From a virus (Duplodnaviria; Caudoviricetes), in IMG/VR virus record IMGVR_UViG_3300035660_000009, positions 1 to 56,917 of that record: 56,917 nt of DNA, one strand, 5' to 3'. Below, one piece after another: positions 4,174 through 53,362 of the stretch. The stretch's first letter is position 1. Every line of letters begins with the position of its first letter. The notes beneath the pieces were generated by a model that saw only the letters and a list, made by a program, of their open reading frames with translations, was not told the origin of the DNA and did no database searches. The position numbers and the translations under genes are program-made.

Positions 4174-4190
4174 TATATTATATGGCGACC
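4174..4190 (-). promoter_or_regulatory. conserved phage promoter-like motif GGTYGCCATATAATATA (representative copy)
   Basis: Plus-strand tatattatatggcgacc. Further copies at ~16254, 20337, 24839, 27085, 30830, 32517, 34555, 38823, 41483, 47047, 49419, 52639 and 56792, each just upstream of a minus-strand start codon. Confidence 0.85.
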
Positions 4191-13261: not shown

Positions 13262-13971
13262 TGGTGTAACTCCCTCTCCGTCCAGACGACGAACGTCATC
13301 CCGTGCTCTGTGCACCAACGGCGTCCGGCTTCGAACCTCGACTCCTTCACCTCAAGTTGCCACTCTGCAACCACCTCAACCAACTCTTGTTTCCCGGAAC
13401 GGTACGTGACGAGGATGTCCGGGATGTACCTATGGGGTGAACCATCTTCTCGGAAGTATGGAATCGAGAATGGTTCCGGAACGAAGGAGACAACCTCCGA
13501 TAACTGCTCCAAGAGTTTGTATGCCAGCAACTCGTAGGACGACCGGTAGTGTAGCCTCTTTCCGTTCTTCGCCGAGTCGAAGTAGCCACCACGTCCTTGC
13601 CGTTCCGGGTGGAATTTTCCCTCGAGGATAAGCCGAGACATAGTTGAGGACTTCTTCGCACGTACCTCTGGTCGCTTGCACGGGTGCTTGTCACCCCTAA
13701 CCTTCTCAAGAACGATCGGGTTCCTCATTGGATTTCGGTCGCCAAGCATTCGTTGCCTAGAGGCCTCTTTCTGCGACTCCGTGACGGTATGACCCAACCC
13801 GAACCGGTTGCCCAACCTAGCCAACCGGATCTTCTCCCTCACTTCAAGTCGCTTACTAGGGTTCTTATCGCCACGCACCGACAAGTGTGGACCCACGGCA
13901 TTCCTACTACCAAGCATTGACAGACGAATCCTCTCTTTCGCCTTCGAGGTGTGCAGTTGCCCCACTCTCAT
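13258..13971 (-). CDS. NUMOD3 + TnsA-like endonuclease-fold protein (copy 1)
   Basis: HTSKAKERI and GDKNP repeats; YRSSYEL...EPFSIPY...YIPDILV...LVEV...FVVWTE. Confidence 0.8.
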   Translation of the reverse strand: MRVGQLHTSKAKERIRLSMLGSRNAVGPHLSVRGDKNPSKRLEVREKIRLARLGNRFGLGHTVTESQKEASRQRMLGDRNPMRNPIVLEKVRGDKHPCKRPEVRAKKSSTMSRLILEGKFHPERQGRGGYFDSAKNGKRLHYRSSYELLAYKLLEQLSEVVSFVPEPFSIPYFREDGSPHRYIPDILVTYRSGKQELVEVVAEWQLEVKESRFEAGRRWCTEHGMTFVVWTERELHQ

Positions 13972-18120: not shown

Positions 18121-18144
18121 CGTCGCTCCTTCCCGCCGCGTGGG

Positions 18145-18366
18145 TCATGGTTCTCTCAGTTTGGCCAATACGCGACCAATTAACCAGCAATCACTCCGGT
18201 TAACCTGTAAATCAAATATCTCCGTGGGCAACTTAAAGCAGATTCGGTGCGTGTTGAAGTCCTCCTCGTGTTGCACGGGTGCTGGAAGCCGCCCACCGCA
18301 TATCAGTTGCCAACCCGCCAAGAAACCACAATCAGTGTGCGGACACCATTCGGGTTTTGCATTCAT
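18145..18366 (-). CDS. small Cys/His-rich hypothetical protein
   Basis: CPHTDC...CGG...H.IC; AAGGAG RBS. Confidence 0.6.
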   Translation of the reverse strand: MNAKPEWCPHTDCGFLAGWQLICGGRLPAPVQHEEDFNTHRICFKLPTEIFDLQVNRSDCWLIGRVLAKLREP

Positions 18367-18428
18367 GGATGCGACTCCTTCCCGCCGGGCGGGTCATTCT
18401 CCCGCACCCGTCTCACGGCTTACCGCGA

Positions 18429-18482
18429 CTTGGTTGACGAACCCAGATTGGGTTGCTTGGTTGACGAACCCAGGTCGGGTTG
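18429..18482. repeat. 27-bp tandem duplication
   Basis: cttggttgacgaacccagattgggttg and cttggttgacgaacccaggtcgggttg, within ORF 18420-18608. Confidence 0.85.
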
Positions 18483-18623
18483 CTCGATAGGAGCGTACCG
18501 AGCACGTCCGCATTTGGGGCAAACGTGCTCGACGGTCCCGTACATCGTCTGTCGAGACTTCGACCTGCGCATCGGGATCTTGCACACCGAACATGTGGGT
18601 CGCATCACTTCCTCCTTAACGGT

Positions 18624-29994: not shown

Positions 29995-30081
29995 TGGACC
30001 GGTGGGTGGGATTTGAACCCACATCCCACGGTTGCTCGTGCACTCATTACCGTGTGCGTTAACCAATTTCGCCACCACCGG
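29995..30081 (-). tRNA. tRNA-like RNA with 18-nt anticodon loop (tRNA-Cys-like?)
   Basis: Acceptor CCGGTGG/CCACCGG followed by T-CCA; D arm GCG-AAATTGGTTAA-CGC; anticodon stem CACGG/CCGTG; T arm GTGGG-TTCAAAT-CCCAC. Confidence 0.75.
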
Positions 30082-32546: not shown

Positions 32547-33191
32547 TCACGATCGGGTAACAACTTCCTCCTCCGACCAGACAACGAACGTTACTCCATT
32601 CTGCCTACACCACAGTTTTCCAGCGTGAAGTTTCAGATGCTTCCGCTCAAGTTCCCATCCCGCTGACACCTCGATCAACTCACGTCTCCCGGAAAGGTAC
32701 GTGACGAGAATGTCGGGAATGTATCTATGGTGAGAACCATCATCTCGGGTGTACGGGATCGAGAACGGTTCAGGTGTAAAGGAGGAAACGGTCTCGTCAG
32801 TTTCCAACCTTTGGTACGCGAGCAACTCATAGGACGATCGATAGTGGAAACACTTTCCGTTCTTCACGGAATCGAAGTAGCCACTCTTACCTCTGTGTTC
32901 AGGGTGGAGTTTGCCTGCAAGGATAAGTCGAACCTTTGCCTCAGACACACGCGCACGTGCGCATAATTGAGACATCGGATTCCTACCACCCCGAATCTTC
33001 GCCTTCACCTCCTCACGCTTCATTGGATTCTTATCACCACACACCGATGGGCGTGGTTTTCCCTTTTGCGTCTCACCACTCTTCCGAGAGACGTCGGATC
33101 GCTTCATTGGGTTGTTGTTGCCACGGATCGATGGACGAGGACCTACAGCGTTCTTGTTGCCACGCATCGACAGGCGTCGCTTCTCATTCAT
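32547..33191 (-). CDS. NUMOD3 + TnsA-like endonuclease-fold protein (copy 2)
   Basis: Three NPMK-type repeats; YRSSYEL...YIPDILV...IEVS...FVVWSE. Confidence 0.8.
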   Translation of the reverse strand: MNEKRRLSMRGNKNAVGPRPSIRGNNNPMKRSDVSRKSGETQKGKPRPSVCGDKNPMKREEVKAKIRGGRNPMSQLCARARVSEAKVRLILAGKLHPEHRGKSGYFDSVKNGKCFHYRSSYELLAYQRLETDETVSSFTPEPFSIPYTRDDGSHHRYIPDILVTYLSGRRELIEVSAGWELERKHLKLHAGKLWCRQNGVTFVVWSEEEVVTRS

Positions 33192-33234: not shown

Positions 33235-33438
33235 TCACCAACCCATCGCTTTTGACTCGCGAACGTGCTCTTCCTGACCACCGGGTTGAGCACGCAACTC
33301 TTTCATCCGTTGCAGCCAATAGGCACCCGTCTCACCCTGGAATATCGGATCACCCACAGGTACGAAGCGAACATGGTGAAGCAAATCCGCGTAAGGCAAC
33401 GAATCAATGTACTGCTTCTTCGCTGGCGTGAGATCCAT
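33235..33438 (-). CDS. hypothetical protein
   Basis: IDSL.Y.DLL...RF.P.G.PIFQGETG.YW; GGAGG RBS. Confidence 0.65.
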   Translation of the reverse strand: MDLTPAKKQYIDSLPYADLLHHVRFVPVGDPIFQGETGAYWLQRMKELRAQPGGQEEHVRESKAMGW

Positions 33439-33505
33439 CTGCCACCTCCACGGGTGTGGGAAGAGTCACGACATGCCGCTCACCGCGCTCACGACGAACA
33501 GTGGG

Positions 33506-34141
33506 TTAAGTGGTGAGTTCCCCATGGTCAACCCGAGCGTTACCGAAGACCAGAGCGTTACCGAAGACCAGAGCGTTACCGGAGACCTGAGCGTTACCGT
33601 GAACCAGAGCGTTACCGGAGACCAGAGCGTTACCGTAAACCTGAGCGTCACCGGAGACCTGAGCGTCACCGGAGACCAGAGCGTTACCGGAGACCTGAGC
33701 GTCACCGGAGACCAGAGCGTTACCGTAAACCTGAGCGTCACCGGAGACCTGAGCGTCACCGAAGACCCGAGCGTCACCGAAGACCCAAGCGTTACCGTAA
33801 ACCTGAGCGTCACCGGAGACCTGAGCGTTACCGTAAACCTGAGCGTCACCGGAGACCTGAGCGTCACCGTAGACCAGAGCGTTACCGTAGACCTGAGCGT
33901 TACCGTAGACCTGAGCGTCACCGTAGACCCGAGCGTTCACACCGACGAAGGCAGTTTCGGCGACCTTCGCGGTCTCCGCGATCCAACCGCCACCGTTCGG
34001 GTGGTGGTGGTACACAACACCGTCGACCGCCTGGGTTTGGTCCCACCAGGAGTCGGGTACGGACACACCCGTATCGCTCACCCACCTAGCTACTATCCGA
34101 GACATGACTTTCTCCTCCTTGGTGAGATCCGGATATCGCAT
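33506..34141 (-). CDS. left-handed beta-helix hexapeptide-repeat protein
   Basis: H.NGGGW.A.TA.V followed by ~22 G[ND]A.V[YSF] repeats. Confidence 0.8.
   Translation of the reverse strand: MRYPDLTKEEKVMSRIVARWVSDTGVSVPDSWWDQTQAVDGVVYHHHPNGGGWIAETAKVAETAFVGVNARVYGDAQVYGNAQVYGNALVYGDAQVSGDAQVYGNAQVSGDAQVYGNAWVFGDARVFGDAQVSGDAQVYGNALVSGDAQVSGNALVSGDAQVSGDAQVYGNALVSGNALVHGNAQVSGNALVFGNALVFGNARVDHGELTT
33533..33937. repeat. 18-bp coding tandem repeat (~22 units)
   Basis: Recurring gagcgt(t/c)accg(g/t/a)agacc(t/a) units. Confidence 0.9.
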
Positions 34142-36371: not shown

Positions 36372-36708
36372 CAGGTGACTCCTTACCAAAGGACTCCTCA
36401 TAGATCGCCAACGTGCTCGCGGCGACACCAACAAGTAAACGAGTGGCCTCGATAGGATCCCCACGACCCACAACACCCAACGCGAGAGCACACTCCACAA
36501 ACCTTCCCACCTGCCCATCCAACATGCAGCACCAACCCGCAAGGGTGAGGACTGGTACACACTCCTTAACCCGACGTTGCCTCTCCCGGAGGACGAGCTC
36601 GAGAAAGGCTGCCCGAGGAGGGGGTGGTAGGAGGGAGGCCCAGTGGTTACCCGCAACCTTGGTCAACTCCTCAAGGTGGGTTGCACGGTCAACTCTCTCT
36701 GGAGCCAT
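36325..36708 (-). CDS. hypothetical protein within the deazaguanine cluster
   Basis: 127-aa helical ORF overlapping both neighbours. Confidence 0.5.
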   Translation of the reverse strand: MAPERVDRATHLEELTKVAGNHWASLLPPPPRAAFLELVLRERQRRVKECVPVLTLAGWCCMLDGQVGRFVECALALGVVGRGDPIEATRLLVGVAASTLAIYEESFGKESPDVRARVDVDPPTGGT

Positions 36709-38447
36709 TGGATATTCTCCACCGCGAGTCTCACCACCTGTGGTGTCATCATGACACCGTAGTCCAACTTCCCCTTCGGTTTCGGCGAGAGGCGCGACAT
36801 CTGCTTGTACACCAACGCGGTCGCGATTGGGAAGGATGTGTCAATACTCCTAATGAACGGGTACATCGCGTACCACCTCAACGCTCTCGGGTCGCTAAGG
36901 CCCAACAGGTGGTGGGGTATACCCCTCTTCAGGTACCCAGTACCCACGAGGTGATGGATCGACCTTAGACGTGCTGCCTCCATCGGGTTCATCGGACCGA
37001 AGAAGTCCCACGGCATGGGATCCTCAAGGGTCCAGATGTAGGAGAGCCCTATACAGGAGACCCCAGGGAGTTCGCTCAACTCCCTGTAACAATCCACCCA
37101 CTCGGAGAACGTACTACCCTGAGGGCAAACCTGCACCACAATGTTCCCACCCAACCGGTTCAAGCACGCCTTCGACCCGATAACGGTCGCCTTTGAGTCG
37201 CCGATCACGTCGGGAAGAACGACCTCGTGTGGCTTCAGTTCCTCCACGAGGCGGACCAAATCCTCAACGGAGAACAGGTCGCCCTCGAACGCGCCGTTAT
37301 CTAAGACGCAATTGTGCGTGAAAACACCAGAAGACAGTGCAAAATTGTGGTGTTTCTGCACCACTAGGCAATAGACTTCCTCCCGTTCGTTGAGATGCCG
37401 AATGGAGACAACTGTGTGGTTCCAATTGTGGCTACCTTTCGCAAGTTGGTTTCCCAACATCCTCACTCTACACTTTTCGCGAAACGCAGCAGACCGGACC
37501 CCGAGTGCTCTACCCAGGAGAGCCTTCTGAACAAGTAACCCCATCTTTTTCCGCTCCCTCAGATCGGTGTAGAACTGGCACATAAACCTCGAATGCGCCT
37601 CTCGCCTTTCCCGAGTCCAAGAACGGGAGTGTGCTTCCCGTGTACACTTCGTGGCCTTGCGACCCAGCATCCGCTGCCTACACACCTCACAAAATTCGGT
37701 TGTGCGCTTCCGTCCACGGTTCGCTCTACCAACCTTGCGCGACCTCTCACGTGCCTCGGGTAGTTGCATGTGTATTCTTGTATGCTCCTCCACTAAAGTC
37801 CACACAAGGTTCTCAGGGTCGTCGTTCAGGGGGTTGAAGTCTTTGTGGTGACGGATCGCCTTCACACCTTTCAGGTTATCGGGTTTCCGTCCCGCGGCAA
37901 CAGCGAAGAAGGGGAACCACTTACCCGTGTGGAGGGACTGGACAAATCGGTGGATTTTGTCCCCCATTGGTCCGTGACCAACCTTCCGGTACAGTGGCAT
38001 CAGGGACGTGCCAGGAGCGAGGTCCTTTGCCTCCCTATAGCTGCCGTCACGAAGCATCCATGGGTGGTCTGGGGTACAGCGGACCTTCTCTCCGTTGTCC
38101 AGAGTGACCTCGACCAGTTCAGCGTTCCCCCGAGTTTTTCGAGCAGTCGCACGACCGGGGACGATCTTCCCGGTCTCGTGGTCGTAGGAGTAGACCCAGA
38201 ACGGGTCCCTTCCTACGAGGTCCTTGATGGGAACCTCGGTTCCGTTGACGAGGGAGACCTTGGTACCCCCAGTGAGACAATACTTCTCCAGAGAGACCTG
38301 CTCCTTATAGAAACCCGCGTACTCAGGGTTCGCCCTGTAAACCCCGGGGATCACGAAATTGTAGTCGGTGAAGGTCGCGAGGATATGCTGGTAGTGGACA
38401 GGTAACTCAGTCGCGACTGCTACCCGGTTAAGTCGGGGGAACTTCAT
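36663..38447 (-). CDS. TGT/DpdA-like TIM-barrel transglycosylase interrupted by an intein
   Basis: Extein motifs VLDNGAFE, LPDV, V.PQG, IGLS, HHLLG and RSIDTS; located among the que genes. Confidence 0.75.
   Translation of the reverse strand: MKFPRLNRVAVATELPVHYQHILATFTDYNFVIPGVYRANPEYAGFYKEQVSLEKYCLTGGTKVSLVNGTEVPIKDLVGRDPFWVYSYDHETGKIVPGRATARKTRGNAELVEVTLDNGEKVRCTPDHPWMLRDGSYREAKDLAPGTSLMPLYRKVGHGPMGDKIHRFVQSLHTGKWFPFFAVAAGRKPDNLKGVKAIRHHKDFNPLNDDPENLVWTLVEEHTRIHMQLPEARERSRKVGRANRGRKRTTEFCEVCRQRMLGRKATKCTREAHSRSWTRERREAHSRFMCQFYTDLRERKKMGLLVQKALLGRALGVRSAAFREKCRVRMLGNQLAKGSHNWNHTVVSIRHLNEREEVYCLVVQKHHNFALSSGVFTHNCVLDNGAFEGDLFSVEDLVRLVEELKPHEVVLPDVIGDSKATVIGSKACLNRLGGNIVVQVCPQGSTFSEWVDCYRELSELPGVSCIGLSYIWTLEDPMPWDFFGPMNPMEAARLRSIHHLVGTGYLKRGIPHHLLGLSDPRALRWYAMYPFIRSIDTSFPIATALVYKQMSRLSPKPKGKLDYGVMMTPQVVRLAVENIQWLQRELTVQPTLRS
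37311..38279 (-). mobile_element. intein (323 aa) with HNH endonuclease and NUMOD3-like repeats
   Basis: N-terminal CLTGGTKV, block B CTPDHPW, HHKDFNPLNDDPENL, C-terminal VYCL.V..HHNFAL..GVFTHN|C. Confidence 0.92.
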
Positions 38448-38793
38448 GCGTGAGACCCTCCTCCGACAGGTACTTGTGGTGGACCAACCAGATAGCCAAC
38501 AGTGCGGCATACCCCGCGATGTCCATGACAGAGTCCGCAAGGTCTGCTTTCACCCTCGTCATGTTGGTGTCACCGCTAACGGGGAGGTTGGCCCTGAGAT
38601 CGTAACCACGATTGCCGATCGTAGCCTTAATCCTCGCACACTTGTCCCTGATGAACGCGATGAAGTCCTCCAGTTCCATGTCGAGGTACGCGTCACCCCT
38701 CGACACATCCCTCTCAACGAGCACCTTCACGACGGTGGCGAAGAACTCACCCGACTTCCGACCGAGTTCGTCGGTCGTGATCCTCGTAGCCAT
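38428..38793 (-). CDS. nucleotide-modification-associated domain 1 (DUF1599/MazG-like) protein
   Basis: R...RGD.Y...I.DK.ARI...DS..DIAGYA.L. Confidence 0.7.
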   Translation of the reverse strand: MATRITTDELGRKSGEFFATVVKVLVERDVSRGDAYLDMELEDFIAFIRDKCARIKATIGNRGYDLRANLPVSGDTNMTRVKADLADSVMDIAGYAALLAIWLVHHKYLSEEGLTHEVPPT

Positions 38794-44873: not shown

Positions 44874-46388
44874 CTAAACAACAGTGAAGTCGAGTGGACT
44901 GTAAGTCTTCTTCCACGTGGGTGGGGTGGTGAAGACCCTCTGAACCTCCACCTGGGAGACACCCATCCGTTTGTACACCCTCATCCGTTTCCTGCTGTGA
45001 CGGAGGAGGATGGGGTGGAACCTGTCCAAGAAGTCATATACTTGGAGAGAGCCTCCCTCCTTCCGCCTCATCCCACGACCAGCACGTTGGATCGCCTTGA
45101 TGGTCGAGTTGCCACCCGAAGCGATCACCACTGTGTCAACCTCAGGGATGTCCGCACCCTCGTCGAAGATACTCGACGCGATAACCACTCTGTAGATACC
45201 TGACCTGAACGCCTTCACCGCCTCCTGTCTCGCCTCATCCGAGGTCTCACCCCAGACAAACTTGACGTGTGGTCCACCCTCGAACCACGCACGGAGGAGG
45301 TTGTAGAGGGTCTTTCCGTGCTGGATCCGCTTGATGAGGACCAGCACCCGCCTGTCCTCCGACACCTTGAGTTTGCACAACTCGACCACCGCGGCGTTCC
45401 TCTTCTCATTGAAGACCAACCCGTGGTCCTCCAGGTAGGACCAACCCAGGTCGCTCACGGAACCCGTCGAAGTGTCGTACCCCGTCGGGTCGTAGTCGAT
45501 GAAGGTCACGTGGGGGACCTCCAAGATACCCAACTCCTGAGCCTCCTGGAGGGTCAACTCGTGAACAATGTCACCTATTGAACCAACCAGCAAAAGGTCA
45601 GTCCCATCCCCTCTATCTAGAGGAGTAGCTGAACAACCCCAGCGGAAAGGTGCAGAACACGACATCAGAACCTTGTACCACGTGTCGCTAGACGCGCGGT
45701 GTGCCTCATCGGAGATGACCACCTGAACGTGGGACAACAGGTTCGCAACCCTCTTACGGTGTGCCTTGTGCGAGAGGGTTTGGACCATCGCGACAGTGAC
45801 GTCACCCACATCCCAGTTATTCCCCTGAACGAGACCCACCTTCACACTCGACATACCGTCCAACCTAACCCGGAACCTGTCGTAGGTCTGCTGGAGTAAG
45901 TGCCTTGTGTGGGTCAACCACAAGACAGGATACAAACCAAGTGTCACCACGAGGGAGATCATCGTCTCAGTTTTTCCCACTCCGGGTGGCGCACGGAACA
46001 GACCCCGTTTCGCGAGGAGGAGAGCCGACACGGCCTTCCTCTGGTCTTCCCTCAACGTGATCCCCTCCAGGTTGGCCACTTGAGTTGTCCCGAGGGGTGG
46101 GTATGTTCGGGAGTCGACAACCTCACAGGGGAATCCCGCGTTCCGGATGGTCTCTGCAACCAACGTGGCCAACCCACTCGGGAACTCCAACTTCTTCTTG
46201 GTCATTAGGTGGTGTTGACCATCCCAGTGGCCCTTCTGGAATGCATTGGAGTAGTACGCACCCACGTCTGTCCAGGAGGTGGCTTTGTCAGCGAGTCCCA
46301 CCACCTGAGACTCGATTGCGGGATCGGGGGCAAGGAACGACCACGCGTGACCCACCACGATACGGGTTGGACATGCAACCTCGTTCAC
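44874..46388 (-). CDS. superfamily 2 helicase (UvsW-like)
   Basis: LREDQ, PPGVGKT, DEAH, SATP, EG.DIP and QR.GR.MR. Confidence 0.92.
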   Translation of the reverse strand: MNEVACPTRIVVGHAWSFLAPDPAIESQVVGLADKATSWTDVGAYYSNAFQKGHWDGQHHLMTKKKLEFPSGLATLVAETIRNAGFPCEVVDSRTYPPLGTTQVANLEGITLREDQRKAVSALLLAKRGLFRAPPGVGKTETMISLVVTLGLYPVLWLTHTRHLLQQTYDRFRVRLDGMSSVKVGLVQGNNWDVGDVTVAMVQTLSHKAHRKRVANLLSHVQVVISDEAHRASSDTWYKVLMSCSAPFRWGCSATPLDRGDGTDLLLVGSIGDIVHELTLQEAQELGILEVPHVTFIDYDPTGYDTSTGSVSDLGWSYLEDHGLVFNEKRNAAVVELCKLKVSEDRRVLVLIKRIQHGKTLYNLLRAWFEGGPHVKFVWGETSDEARQEAVKAFRSGIYRVVIASSIFDEGADIPEVDTVVIASGGNSTIKAIQRAGRGMRRKEGGSLQVYDFLDRFHPILLRHSRKRMRVYKRMGVSQVEVQRVFTTPPTWKKTYSPLDFTVV

Positions 46389-46451
46389 GGTTCGTCTCTC
46401 ATCACTGTGGTCTAGCAGATCGACATATGAGAATATGAAAGAGATTTATTG

Positions 46452-46868
46452 TTAAGCTTTCCCTTCCCCTGGCACCGTGTCGGGTGTGAGACCACGCATC
46501 TCCGGGGGAAGGGCGGAGAAGACCTCTGGGTGCTCCTCCGCGAAGTGTGCTACCATCTCACCCGACGACAGGGGTGCCTTCCAGGCACCACCACCCTCCT
46601 CCCTCACCCTAAAGTGGGTGATGAAACACTGGTGACACATCCCACACGCAAGCTTGGTCCACCCCCCATATCTCCACGTGTGGAGTGAGTGACCCGCGGG
46701 ACATACTATCTGGGTGAGTTCACGTGTGAGGGGGATGTTGTAGTGTCTCCCACAGGTGTGACAGAAGAGAGGGAACGATATGACGGGGTCCCTGTTAGGG
46801 TCGCAATGGAGTTCGTTCGACATGGTGGTCACACACGTACCACACCAGTTCTGAGGAACCCAAGCCAC
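46452..46868 (-). CDS. Zn-ribbon hypothetical protein
   Basis: Multiple CxxC and CPxxH motifs. Confidence 0.55.
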   Translation of the reverse strand: MAWVPQNWCGTCVTTMSNELHCDPNRDPVISFPLFCHTCGRHYNIPLTRELTQIVCPAGHSLHTWRYGGWTKLACGMCHQCFITHFRVREEGGGAWKAPLSSGEMVAHFAEEHPEVFSALPPEMRGLTPDTVPGEGKA

Positions 46869-47023
46869 ACCTTACGTGTCATGGGTGCATGGTACTGAAC
46901 ACTTCCAGGTCGCGCGACGTGCCACAACTTGGAACCATCAAGAGCGGGACTCACCATTGCGCGACCTTTGGCGAGGCGGTTCGCCTTTCGGATCGACAGT
47001 GGTTTCGTTTGTGTTGCCGGCAT
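46829..47023 (-). CDS. hypothetical protein
   Basis: GGAGG RBS and promoter motif upstream. Confidence 0.55.
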   Translation of the reverse strand: MPATQTKPLSIRKANRLAKGRAMVSPALDGSKLWHVARPGSVQYHAPMTRKVWLGFLRTGVVRV

Positions 47024-47153
47024 GGTTTGCCTCCAACCGGGCGTGATATATTATATGGCAACCGGGGGTGACCATGTTGCCGTGCACGATCACCGAGGGT
47101 GACGACGTACTGGGGGAAAGCACGTTGTACACCCCACCCGGTTGCCAAACATC

Positions 47154-47429
47154 CTACTTGCGGAGTGCCCGCTTGAGGAGGTCGATCGTAGTCTCCGCAA
47201 CCAACCCCTCACTCGACAACTTGTCTAGGGGAGACAATTTGGAGAACCACACCTCCAGGTGGCCCAGTGCTTGTCTCACGAGAGTGGGGTTACAAGTCAG
47301 GTGCTTCCTCAACTCCTTCCCGAGGTAAGCCTCAAGGTAGTCCCAGTCAATGGGTGCGTTGCTGAGGTCGCCAAAATTGCCCTCTCTGAGAGACTCAACG
47401 ATCGACTGTGCGAGAGTAGCGGGGTTCAT
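47154..47429 (-). CDS. hypothetical protein
   Basis: 91 aa with GGAG RBS; N-terminal AQSIVESLRE. Confidence 0.55.
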   Translation of the reverse strand: MNPATLAQSIVESLREGNFGDLSNAPIDWDYLEAYLGKELRKHLTCNPTLVRQALGHLEVWFSKLSPLDKLSSEGLVAETTIDLLKRALRK

Positions 47430-47539
47430 TCGGGTAACTCCGCTAAGGGACCCAACTGTATGAGTTCGGAGTTTCTTACCTCCACAGGAGAGACCGTACC
47501 TTCAATATGATTCATCATGCACAAACTAGTGGGTTGGGT

Positions 47540-48105
47540 CAAAAGGGTGCCAACGGGTAGGGGGGTCCTGTGACGTCGCCCGTACGTCCCGGACCAGGAC
47601 TCTCGCGCACGGAGGTGATGCGGCGAGAATCTTGTGTGGTTGAGAGTACCACACGCCACCTACCACGTTGGCAAGAGGTGTGGGGTAGGTCGGTATCCGT
47701 ACGGGGGGACATACAGACCCTAAACCTACCCCACTTGTACTTGATCGGGTCCCGTGTGGGTTGCAGGACTGGTACTCACCCATGCGTCGCTCATCACGCG
47801 AACTCACAGAACCCGGTCGACGGAGACTCCAGTGGGCAAACAGAGTTCTGGGAGGTAACCCTACGATGCCCGCTCGGGTTTCCTTTTCCCGTCGTCTGTG
47901 CAATCTGGTGTCCCCGTCGACTGTTCAAATAGGTTTGGTGTGTGGTAGACCGGATTACCCCGGCAACGCATACGGAGCGTCATCGACCCGTCGGTCGATG
48001 AGCAAGGGTCGGGAAAGTGAGTTGCAATCCCACACGCCCAACTTGGCTTGTTTCGTGGTGAGCACACATGTCCTCTGCCACGCTCTTCCCACACACCAAA
48101 CGGTT
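47540..48105. ncRNA. candidate large structured non-coding RNA
   Basis: No convincing ORF; more than 10 complementary segment pairs, including 11-bp and 13-bp perfect helices and two crossing long-range helices (see findings). Confidence 0.6.
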
Positions 48106-48130
48106 GTCAAAGATCGTTACGACATCACAC

Positions 48131-48358
48131 CTAACGAGACACGACAAACCTTACCCACGTCCAACGGGAGCAAGTGCAGTGACTACGGAGACACGGCCCG
48201 GCACCGTGACGCCGTACCCCACCCACAAAAACAAGGTCCGCGTGGTCCGTTATGCTGTGTCCACACTTACAAATCTCGTCGACAATCATCTTGCCCTGGG
48301 GGGTGATGTTGCCGATCGAGCCGTACCCCACACCGAACCCTGTCTTTTGCCTTGTCAT
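48131..48358 (-). CDS. small Cys/His hypothetical protein
   Basis: CKCGH...H...C...C.C. Confidence 0.6.
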   Translation of the reverse strand: MTRQKTGFGVGYGSIGNITPQGKMIVDEICKCGHSITDHADLVFVGGVRRHGAGPCLRSHCTCSRWTWVRFVVSR

Positions 48359-48400
48359 GGTTACACCTTTCCACCCACCGTCGACAATTGCTAAAGTTCG

Positions 48401-49381
48401 TTACGACCGACGGAGACGTGAACTGCAGTGGGAGCACCGATGGGCGTTTGTCGCCATCACGGTGGTCGCTTCACCGAGGAGTGTCGTCACCCTCTCCCGA
48501 CTCGCGGTGGGAAGGTCCCTCGCGGACATGGTCGCGAGGTTCATCACGTCGTACATCGAGGGGGAGTTCGGCAACTCGGGCAACATCTCCACGACGCCCT
48601 GGACGAAGGGTCTCGGGAGAGCGAACTCCTGACCCAACCGGATGATGGTCTGCTCGTTGTTCTCCACGCGGACGTCGTCGAGGGCGAACAGGTGGCCGAC
48701 CAACGTGGTCGCCCGAACCTTCTGTGCCTGGCACACGTTCCGCACCTCCTGGGCGACGAGGTCGGTGTGGTTGACCTTGCGGAGACGTTCGTAGCACCGC
48801 TGCACCCCGTTCGTGCACGCCAACCTCCAGCAATACGGACCGAGTTCCACCTGGCCGTTCATCCTGACGACGATCCCGGTGTGGATGAGGTCACCCTTCT
48901 CCTTCGGGCGGTCTGTCGCCTGCTGGCTGACGAACCACATCCGAAGGGTGTGACCGTGCTCCTCGATCTGGACGTTCTTGACCGGGATCTCCTCGGCGAT
49001 GACGTCGAAGACGGTCGCGGGTGGAACAACACAACCACCCTTGGGTGTCGTAACCGAGGACACCCTACTCACCGTCCCCGTGAACCTCGCCAACACGTCC
49101 TTCCGTTTGGCGATGCTGTGGGAGATCATCCGAGCGACCAGCTCGGGGTCACTCTCGAACTCCCTCAGTCCTCCGGACGAGATCCCCGCTTGGGCGAGCA
49201 ACCCGATGGTGTCCGTAACGGGAAGGACCATGTCCCCCCGACGGAGACCGATTCGCGTTCCCTCGACCTCCGGGATCAACACCAACCCGGTCTTCGAGAG
49301 TTCCGTGTCCAGAGCCCAGTGACCCATCTGCTGGACCCTGCTACGGCCTTCCTCCAGCGTGAGCATTGCCGGTTGGACCAT
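48401..49381 (-). CDS. DUF932-like protein
   Basis: RLACTNG motif, YD..N..T..A; promoter motif upstream. Confidence 0.65.
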   Translation of the reverse strand: MVQPAMLTLEEGRSRVQQMGHWALDTELSKTGLVLIPEVEGTRIGLRRGDMVLPVTDTIGLLAQAGISSGGLREFESDPELVARMISHSIAKRKDVLARFTGTVSRVSSVTTPKGGCVVPPATVFDVIAEEIPVKNVQIEEHGHTLRMWFVSQQATDRPKEKGDLIHTGIVVRMNGQVELGPYCWRLACTNGVQRCYERLRKVNHTDLVAQEVRNVCQAQKVRATTLVGHLFALDDVRVENNEQTIIRLGQEFALPRPFVQGVVEMLPELPNSPSMYDVMNLATMSARDLPTASRERVTTLLGEATTVMATNAHRCSHCSSRLRRS

Positions 49382-49436
49382 GTGTGGCTCTCCTATCCCT
49401 GTCCCTTACCCCTCACCCTATATTATATGCCAACCC

Positions 49437-52642: not shown

Positions 52643-53362
52643 TTATATGGCAACCCGGTCACCACATTCCGCCGGCATCCGTTGGAACAACTCTTTCTCT
52701 GCCCATACCACGAATGTTGCACCGTTCTGTTGGCACCACAGTCTTCCAGCTTCGAACTTCAACCTCTTCGTCTCGCTCGTAACGTCCCACCCGACCTCGA
52801 TCAACTCCCGTCTTCCGTCTCGGTAGGTGACGAGGATGTCTGGGACATACAGTCGCTCCGTTCCCTTCGTATCGGTGTAAGGGATTGAGAAAGGTTCGTA
52901 CCTGTAGGAGACGACGGTCACGTCTTTCTCCAACCACTGGAATGCGAGTAACTCGTAGGACGACCGGTGGTAGAACCTCTTTCCATTCTTCGCAGACCAA
53001 AAGTGACCTACTCGACCCTGAAACCACTTTCCCTCAAGAATAAGTTGCACCACGGTCATAGACATTTTCGGGCGGGACCCCCGCAACTTCGCCCTGAACT
53101 CCTCCGAACGCGGAACCGCAGCGTACTTGTTGCCACGATGCCACGGGTGGGGTCCAGCAGCGTATCGGTTGCCGAGGTTTATCAGGCGAAGCTTCTCTCT
53201 CACCTCTTCACGGATCGGTGGTCGGGGCCTTCGTAACGCCTCCTGTACCTCTGGCCTCTTCGCGGGATTCTTGTCGCCACACATCGACGGTCGAGGAACC
53301 CCACGTCCGCCACCGTACTTGTTGCTAAGGTCCGCCAAACGAATCTTTTCCTCTCGTTCCAT
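52643..53362 (-). CDS. NUMOD3 + TnsA-like endonuclease-fold protein (copy 3)
   Basis: GDKNPAKRPEV; RSSYEL...YVPDILV...IEVG...FVVWAE. Confidence 0.8.
   Translation of the reverse strand: MEREEKIRLADLSNKYGGGRGVPRPSMCGDKNPAKRPEVQEALRRPRPPIREEVREKLRLINLGNRYAAGPHPWHRGNKYAAVPRSEEFRAKLRGSRPKMSMTVVQLILEGKWFQGRVGHFWSAKNGKRFYHRSSYELLAFQWLEKDVTVVSYRYEPFSIPYTDTKGTERLYVPDILVTYRDGRRELIEVGWDVTSETKRLKFEAGRLWCQQNGATFVVWAEKELFQRMPAECGDRVAI

Follow-up and report, generated by a model that had tools for sequence, protein, structure and literature searches.

To our knowledge, very few non-ribosomal RNAs of bacteria and phages are longer than 500 nt and adopt complex folds. Among the described examples, ROOL RNA averages 581 nt and is reported from three phyla (PMC5737381); it has six junctions and three pseudoknots, is borne by phages and prophages, and often lies near tRNA genes (PMC5737381; 10.1101/2024.12.08.627333). 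GOLLD, likewise associated with phages, is described as large and ornate, and many of its members exceed 800 nt and lie beside tRNAs (10.1101/2024.12.08.627333; PMC5737381). Neither RNA has an assigned function; both have been reported to form RNA-only nanocages (bioRxiv 10.1101/2024.12.08.627333). Candidate structured RNA models described from IMG/VR are 29–151 nt long (PMC10690425).

The locus considered here lies in one virus record from IMG/VR, 56,917 bases long, which was analyzed over its whole length (hereafter the window). A first-pass annotation, made from the letters of the window, had proposed that the locus encodes a large structured noncoding RNA, either ROOL- or GOLLD-like or of a new class. 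The proposal of a structured RNA is supported by its folding energy, by strand asymmetry, by the lack of coding signal and by a small number of natural variants, whereas the likeness to ROOL or GOLLD at the level of family membership is not.

Results

Genomic Setting of the Element

The record has an estimated completeness of 34% and a GC content of ~57% throughout. All 11 of its proteins with Pfam matches are encoded on the minus strand, including PolA fused to a UDG domain, ribonucleotide reductase, a T4-like portal, an SbcC-like ATPase, a DnaB-primase, an SF2 helicase, a radical-SAM protein, a DUF4031 protein, and an intein-bearing protein. The closest match to PolA among 50,697 phage records is ~31% identical and, judged by such sequence comparison, the phage is deeply divergent from cultured phages.

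Elsewhere in the record, a 625-aa ORF (36663–38540, minus strand) contains an intein splicing domain (Pfam PF14890, E 4.6e-21), and a tandem array at 33423–34067 comprises at least 24 registers of an 18-nt unit that would give a six-residue repeat if translated, and lies within overlapping ORFs on both strands. Three paralogous gene segments (13271–13636, 32566–32931, and 52692–53020; DNA identity 61–75%) reside in three minus-strand ORFs of about 240–250 aa at a spacing of ~20 kb. A 503-nt gap at 18121–18623 (minus strand) lacks a well-scoring ORF and contains a 27-nt tandem duplication (18429–18482); its fold has a z-score of −1.56. The sole tRNA in the window (29995–30081, minus strand; Rfam, 52 bits) overlaps the longest-ORF start of the PolA gene, and was called by ARAGORN as tRNA-??? 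with a two-letter anticodon, "(aa)", indicative of an unusual anticodon loop.

The element occupies a gap of 701 nt (47430–48130) between a 91-aa orphan gene on its downstream side (47154–47429, minus strand) and a 75-aa ORF on its upstream side (48131–48358, minus strand). Further upstream, a 326-aa gene (48401–49381, minus strand) to which no function is assigned is conserved in related phages and is the first gene of the unit. Coding potential was assessed with a log-odds score per codon, trained on the 17 minus-strand ORFs of at least 300 aa. ORFs within the gap scored at most 0.044, compared to 0.39 for the 91-aa gene and 0.387 for the 326-aa gene, and each of the three minus-strand frames of the gap is interrupted by several stop codons, on which ground a recoded gene was rejected. 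The earlier observation that the stretch holds no credible ORF is therefore upheld; the rest of the contig is gene-dense.

The two small neighbors are themselves poorly connected to known proteins. For the 75-aa ORF, which contains two motifs of the form CxC and CxC, the codon score is borderline (0.143 per codon), no family match was obtained, and a search of a protein collection returned nothing, itself included, within the length range searched; its status as a gene is uncertain. An exhaustive HMMER search of 1.84 billion representative proteins with the 91-aa protein returned the protein itself and one weak match (E 6e-4), so that the only credible match is the query itself.

Transcription Context and Flanking Motifs

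A motif, GCCATATAATATA, occurs 12 times in the window when up to 2 mismatches are allowed, compared to 0.05 expected, and all 12 sites are on the minus strand, starting at 4174, 16254, 20337, 24839, 27085, 30828, 32517, 34555, 38823, 47047, 49419, and 52639. Read against the ORF list, the copies usually sit shortly upstream of ORF starts, often after a GC-rich stem, suggesting that the motif is probably the phage's own promoter or a terminator–promoter module. One promoter-like copy, GGCATATAATATA (49419–49431, minus strand), lies 38 nt before the 326-aa gene and, on the basis of this motif scan, is where transcription of the unit with the element probably begins; the element is located 1.3 kb downstream of this copy. 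The next promoter-like copy, GCCATATAATATA (47047–47059, minus strand), marks the probable end of the unit.

The element has no promoter-like motif copy of its own in the scan of the window, and no terminator-like site was found in 46400–49000. Since the element lies between two motif copies, it is most likely cotranscribed with the 326-aa gene, the 75-aa ORF, and the 91-aa gene; since neither a terminator-like site nor a repeated promoter motif bounds it, its existence as a discrete RNA species is putative. Directly before the copy at 47059–47047, in the 285-nt gap after the 91-aa gene (gap z-score −2.54), a stable three-way structure is predicted at 47056–47147 (minus strand), with an 11-bp perfect closing helix, TGGCAACCGGG/CCCGGTTGCCA. 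This structure may serve to terminate the unit.

There is a weak sigma-70-like site (TTGACC-17-CATGAT, 9 of 12) just 3′ of the last domain of the element, between it and the 91-aa gene. The element is also flanked by a short direct repeat, with one copy, UUUGAC-AACC, immediately before the first domain (48102–48111, minus strand) and the other, UUUGAC-CC-AACC, a few bases past the last domain (47532–47543, minus strand), where it overlaps the weak sigma-70-like site. TTTGAC is depleted in the contig (13 sites compared to 32 expected), and 11 of the 13 sites are on the minus strand. The two copies may mark sites of processing or be the scars of an insertion, or they may be coincidental.

Folding Stability and Strand

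Folding energies were compared with those of dinucleotide-preserving shuffles. With RNA parameters and 100 shuffles, a core slice of 576 nt (47535–48110) has a minimum free energy (MFE) of −269.0 kcal/mol and a z-score of −7.63 on the minus strand, compared to −249.9 kcal/mol and −3.94 on the plus strand. Two minus-strand coding controls of the same length, treated identically, yielded −242.9 kcal/mol and a z-score of −0.59 (48401–48976) and −246.5 kcal/mol and −2.24 (45000–45575). The whole 701-nt gap behaves in the same way (−304.4 kcal/mol, z-score −8.03 on the minus strand; −286.7 kcal/mol, z-score −3.49 on the plus strand; 20 shuffles), and two other minus-strand noncoding gaps have z-scores of −2.54 and −1.56. 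In a scan of 284 consecutive 200-nt windows of the minus strand, with 8 shuffles each, windows 47601–47800 and 47801–48000 ranked 1 and 2 by energy gain over shuffles, with gains of −18.8 and −16.6 kcal/mol, respectively, where the mean over the contig is −1.1 (standard deviation 4.8).

The comparison with shuffled sequence, which the first-pass annotation had proposed as a check, thus comes out clearly in favor of structure, and the structured strand is the minus, or gene-sense, strand. The annotation had read G–U pairs as favoring the plus strand, a reading that is reversed by the 19 kcal/mol advantage and the much stronger z-score of the minus strand. The GNRA hairpin that it took to favor the minus strand, GCCGGG-GUAA-UCCGGU, is present there. 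It should be noted that the minus-strand core also scores strongly with DNA parameters (−133.8 kcal/mol, z-score −6.23, 100 shuffles). Stability alone therefore cannot tell RNA from single-stranded DNA, and the case for RNA rests on the strand asymmetry rather than on stability by itself.

A Predicted Four-Domain Fold

The predicted minus-strand fold comprises 194 pairs (118 GC, 60 AU, and 16 GU). For the core, the centroid and MFE structures nearly coincide, which in the model indicates a well-defined fold. In the MFE fold, the core of the structured RNA candidate (47548–48101, minus strand; 554 nt) is organized into four domains that follow one another and are each closed on their own; they all lie on the minus strand and are here numbered D1 to D4 from the 5′ end.

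D1 (48101–47933; helix list and RNAalifold of its single-sequence model) would be closed by a 13-bp perfect helix and form a six-way junction with five hairpins, including CAUCGACC/GGUCGAUG and one with a GUAA loop. D2 (47931–47738; MFE fold and its single-sequence model) is predicted to have a 7-bp closing helix and two long arms, at 47816–47921 and 47746–47815, the latter branched. D3 (47734–47680; MFE fold) is modeled as a long hairpin of 12 + 9 bp. D4 (47673–47548; MFE fold and its single-sequence model) would be a four-way junction, with a closing helix of 8 bp (47666–47673/47548–47555) and 6 bp (47659–47664/47556–47561) and three inner hairpins (47648–47654/47634–47640, 47623–47631/47598–47606, and 47591–47595/47564–47568).

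The individual complementarities listed in the first-pass annotation are recovered in this arrangement. Its 13-bp helix (47933–47945/48089–48101) and 11-bp helix (47680–47690/47724–47734) are 100% complementary over 13 and 11 nt, respectively; the helix described there as ~16 bp extends over 17 nt (47816–47832/47905–47921) with 88% complementarity; the closing helix 47548–47561/47659–47673 around three hairpins is present at these coordinates; and the catcgacc/ggtcgatg hairpin was located at 47993–48000/47981–47988.

A long-range pairing had also been proposed in which 47753–47779 pairs with 48017–48036, crossing the 13-bp helix and implying a pseudoknot or switch. The complementarity and the crossing were confirmed: the segment of the D1 loop at 48017–48036 (minus strand) is complementary to its partner in an arm of D2 (47753–47779, minus strand), and their duplex has a computed energy of −25.7 kcal/mol. 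The pseudoknot or switch itself is a thermodynamically permitted alternative, and only that. With both segments forced open and the duplex added, the total is about −271.9 kcal/mol, compared to −269.0 kcal/mol for the nested MFE structure, with no pseudoknot penalty applied; on these modeled energies, a pseudoknot, a kissing contact, or a switch between D1 and D2 is allowed.

Three candidate features of the sequence were considered and rejected. An anti-Shine–Dalgarno mimic in a D4 loop (AUCACCUCC) was dismissed, the 9-mer occurring twice in the window compared to 0.88 expected and a U of the loop being altered in a natural strain variant (run X6, below). GTGGGGTA was not retained as a meaningful motif (9 sites compared to 3 expected, 4 of them local), and an alignment of D4 with the downstream structure at 47052–47150 was unconvincing as evidence of paralogy.

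Natural Variants in Sediment Metagenomes

Six sediment-metagenome runs from six studies were considered, two of which may be the source of the record's DNA. Five of them contain at least half of the stretch's sampled words, and the sixth contains 0.19. Variants were compared over 46400–49400 in contigs of four runs (X3, X4, X5, and X6). Runs X3 and X5 show zero differences, and run X4 differs by a T>C change at 47700, inside the element, and by one change in the 326-aa gene. Run X6 contributes a 286-nt contig (47511–47797) with 10 substitutions and one 1-nt deletion, from a strain that is roughly 96% identical; its depth is 3.1, and differences seen in a single contig at a depth below 5 may be errors.

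The variant events total 12, with 11 from the one X6 contig and 1 from X4. Two of them, at 47621 and 47607, affect the partners of one pair in a D4 hairpin, which change jointly from G–C to A–U in X6 and are thus compensatory; by our own rough estimate, the chance of one compensatory pair among 10 substitutions is ~0.05. Two single-sided changes keep pairing on the minus strand and would produce A–C mismatches on the plus strand, namely C–G to U–G at 47748 and A–U to G–U at 47700 (D3, run X4). Unpaired positions account for 5 of the 12 events, and 3 of the 12 weaken predicted pairs: G–C to C–C at 47568, a loop-closing U–A to A–A at 47648, and the deletion, by which one C is lost from a paired C-run at 47560. 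The pattern is suggestive but falls short of proof.

Known RNA Families and Related Loci

At gathering thresholds, a cmscan of the whole window against Rfam 15 returned only a tRNA (29998–30081). When 47300–48500 was scanned at E ≤ 10, three weak, unrelated matches were obtained (a plant miRNA, traJ-II, and a snoRNA), and models of ROOL, GOLLD, introns, RNase P, and tmRNA were absent from the results; ARAGORN likewise found no tmRNA. With nothing credible in Rfam 15 at either threshold, membership in ROOL, GOLLD, or an intron class fails. This is the outcome of the cmscan proposed in the first-pass annotation, which itself had not recognized group I/II intron, RNase P, or tmRNA cores. In principle, the shorter IMG/VR models (29–151 nt; PMC10690425) might include a sub-motif of the element.

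Homologs were sought at the nucleotide, protein, and structure levels. Neither blastn of the 701-nt gap, at a distant setting, against 50,697 phage records nor single-protein searches of viral contigs for related loci (with the 326-aa neighbor, the helicase, and PolA) gave any match, and the 326-aa protein, used as query for homologous proteins, retrieved nothing but itself. Related loci, 80 from metagenomes and 80 viral, were then gathered by means of an alignment of 7 helicases. In these 160 related loci, blastn and nhmmer searches with the RNA found chance-level fragments only. Single-sequence covariance models of D4, D1, and D2 (R1, R2, and R3, respectively), run over the window and 169 loci, matched only themselves, besides subthreshold noise and the antisense of R3, and R2 had no match in the whole of a related 39.3-kb record (G001). 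Exact-pattern searches of viral contigs with two 19–20-mers found none. One 19-mer matched a single viral contig (L170) and another matched 8 bacterial contigs, about the number estimated by chance; none of these nine contigs matched the domain models.

The nearest syntenic relatives are a viral contig, L082, and a metagenome contig, L006, which gave tblastn matches and share the 326-aa, 144-aa, 157-aa, and helicase genes with the window. In L082, the helicase is 51%, the 326-aa homolog (L082:1801–2805) 36%, and the 144-aa homolog 39% identical; L006 has the same conserved neighbors, and in it a 159-aa ORF and then the helicase come immediately after the 326-aa gene. Nothing like the RNA element was found in either contig by blastn, nhmmer, or the three domain models. 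This synteny without the element indicates that the element, the 75-aa ORF, and the 91-aa orphan lie between conserved genes, in a part of the genome that varies. The idea that L082 has a comparable structured RNA was considered and rejected (gap z-scores −1.27 and −2.23, no Rfam match), and the fold of the corresponding gap in a further locus, L007, has a z-score of −0.03. Relatives carry tRNA genes near the helicase, two in L002 (798–878 and 1001–1099) and one in L006 (9267–9350); in the window, the same variable helicase neighborhood carries the large RNA candidate.

By these sequence searches, the element is an orphan whose known occurrence is limited to a single phage lineage. As no homologs were found, there is no phylogenetic covariation, and the covariation check proposed in the first-pass annotation extended no further than one strain variant.

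Discussion

Exceptional stability that is specific to one strand, the absence of coding signal, a place within a transcription unit, and a few structure-compatible variants form the observed basis for interpreting the locus. A simple model, to which we give about an even chance of being correct, would be that 48101–47548 on the minus strand encodes a noncoding RNA of ~555 nt that acts through its fold, belongs to an orphan new class, and is embedded in an operon. The RNA would share its transcript with the 326-aa gene, with the 91-aa orphan gene, and with the 75-aa ORF, whose status as a gene is doubtful. Its fold would consist of D1 to D4, arranged in series and each closed independently. The RNA would work via this fold rather than by coding or by simple antisense pairing, would be stable and possibly excised from the operon transcript as a discrete molecule, and might act in trans, in a scaffold or assembly role. 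Because the element is an orphan, its status remains that of a candidate.

An element in this position could instead be a cis-acting, intercistronic part of the mRNA that controls how stable the flanking cistrons are or how they are processed or translated, for instance by shielding the upstream message from 3′ exonucleases or by gating expression of the 91-aa gene. Its location within a unit bounded by two promoter-like copies speaks for such a role, as do its lack of both a repeated promoter motif and a terminator-like site and the start of the 91-aa gene about 120 nt past the end of D4. Nevertheless, we consider it unlikely: some 555 nt in four closed, multistem domains go far beyond the needs of known leader or protective structures, the weak sigma-70-like site lies between the element and the 91-aa gene, and relatives express the conserved 326-aa gene without such an element. 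The absence of the element from the syntenic position in these closest relatives, together with the direct repeat on both sides (48111–48102 and 47543–47532) of which the rare TTTGAC forms part and the GUGUG just after the upstream stop codon, which matches the 5′ consensus of group II introns, would suit a selfish or mobile insertion or its remnant. In that case, an ORF-less intron-like or nonautonomous element, with a structure serving its own mobility, would have inserted between the 326-aa gene and the helicase, where the sequence is variable. This seems very improbable to us, however, given that group I and II introns have no Rfam match even at E ≤ 10, that the covariance models gave no second copy in the window and 169 loci, that no terminal inverted repeats were seen on reading the ends of the element, and that each flanking ORF has a start codon of its own while neither has homologs that would reveal a split gene; the shared 10-nt repeat with its indel is, by our own post hoc estimate, only mildly improbable.

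The strong fold obtained for the minus strand with DNA parameters and the proximity of replication genes (the SF2 helicase gene at 1.2 kb and the DnaB-primase gene at about 4 kb) raise the question of a DNA-level site that serves as an origin of replication or in recombination or packaging, with hairpins that would form in single-stranded DNA. Against this stand a folding preference that is strongly strand-asymmetric and dependent on G–U pairs, the two single-sided transitions that keep pairing on the minus strand only, the absence of an AT-rich block and of an iteron array at the element, and a cumulative GC skew that does not turn there, and we would assign such a site only the slightest likelihood. 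Chance self-complementarity in functionless, decaying, or junk intergenic DNA, arising from repeated words of the GTGTGG/CCACAC type, is in our judgment quite improbable as well. While GGTGTGTGG, with up to 1 mismatch, has 58 sites in the window compared to 40 expected, several of them in the region of the element, and the element is an orphan without evidence of conservation, z-scores and window ranks such as those described above, along with a centroid so close to the MFE structure, are hard to obtain from word repeats. Moreover, the partner of each GTGTGG word is used in a distinct helix, and the contig is otherwise gene-dense.

Returning to the operon-embedded noncoding RNA, a bolder version would see in it the first representative of another class of large and ornate RNAs of phages, excised from the transcript and operating, like ROOL and GOLLD, as an RNA-only machine, for example a homo-oligomer or a ribozyme. 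We regard this version as doubtful. If the RNA were a homo-oligomer, interdomain kissing contacts such as that between 48017–48036 and 47753–47779 would hold the assembly together. Should the noncoding RNA as such be real, the small set of large RNAs would gain an unrelated member from a deeply divergent sediment phage, one readily amenable to probing and cryo-EM.

Compared to known systems, the element shares with ORFless group I and II introns a similar size, a multidomain and sometimes pseudoknotted architecture, residence in phages, and a presence that varies between strains. The domains of the element, however, are arranged in series rather than around a central wheel, and a hairpin like domain V was not seen on reading its fold. 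The ORFs that flank the element look like separate small genes, with their own start codons and no intact homolog known. As for a group I intron interrupting a recognizable gene, the 91-aa ORF has no homolog of any length among 1.84 billion representatives, and a search restricted by length gave none for the 75-aa ORF. The GUGUG at 48130–48126, just past the upstream stop codon, resembles the 5′ consensus of group II introns; apart from it, nothing fits that class, which has no Rfam match at E ≤ 10. GOLLD, like the element, is large, ornate, and phage-associated. It often exceeds 800 nt and lies beside tRNAs, in contrast to the ~555 nt of the element and its position between protein-coding genes with no tRNA nearby, and the Rfam model of GOLLD, which includes a conserved 3′ region, has no match in the element.

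With ROOL, the contrasts are in distribution and setting. ROOL spans three phyla and the element one phage lineage; ROOL is often found near tRNAs, and the nearest tRNA to the element (29995–30081) is about 17.5 kb away. Architecture may differ too, with six junctions and three pseudoknots in ROOL and, in the single-sequence fold prediction for the element, four multistem junctions and one candidate pseudoknot. On the other hand, the phage context of the element agrees with the phage and prophage setting of ROOL, both are noncoding RNAs (putatively so in the case of the element) with several multistem junctions and without an obvious protein partner, and their sizes are similar (581 nt on average, compared to a 554-nt core). 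By analogy, then, the likeness of the element to ROOL and GOLLD is only a loose one, of size, complexity, and residence in a phage.
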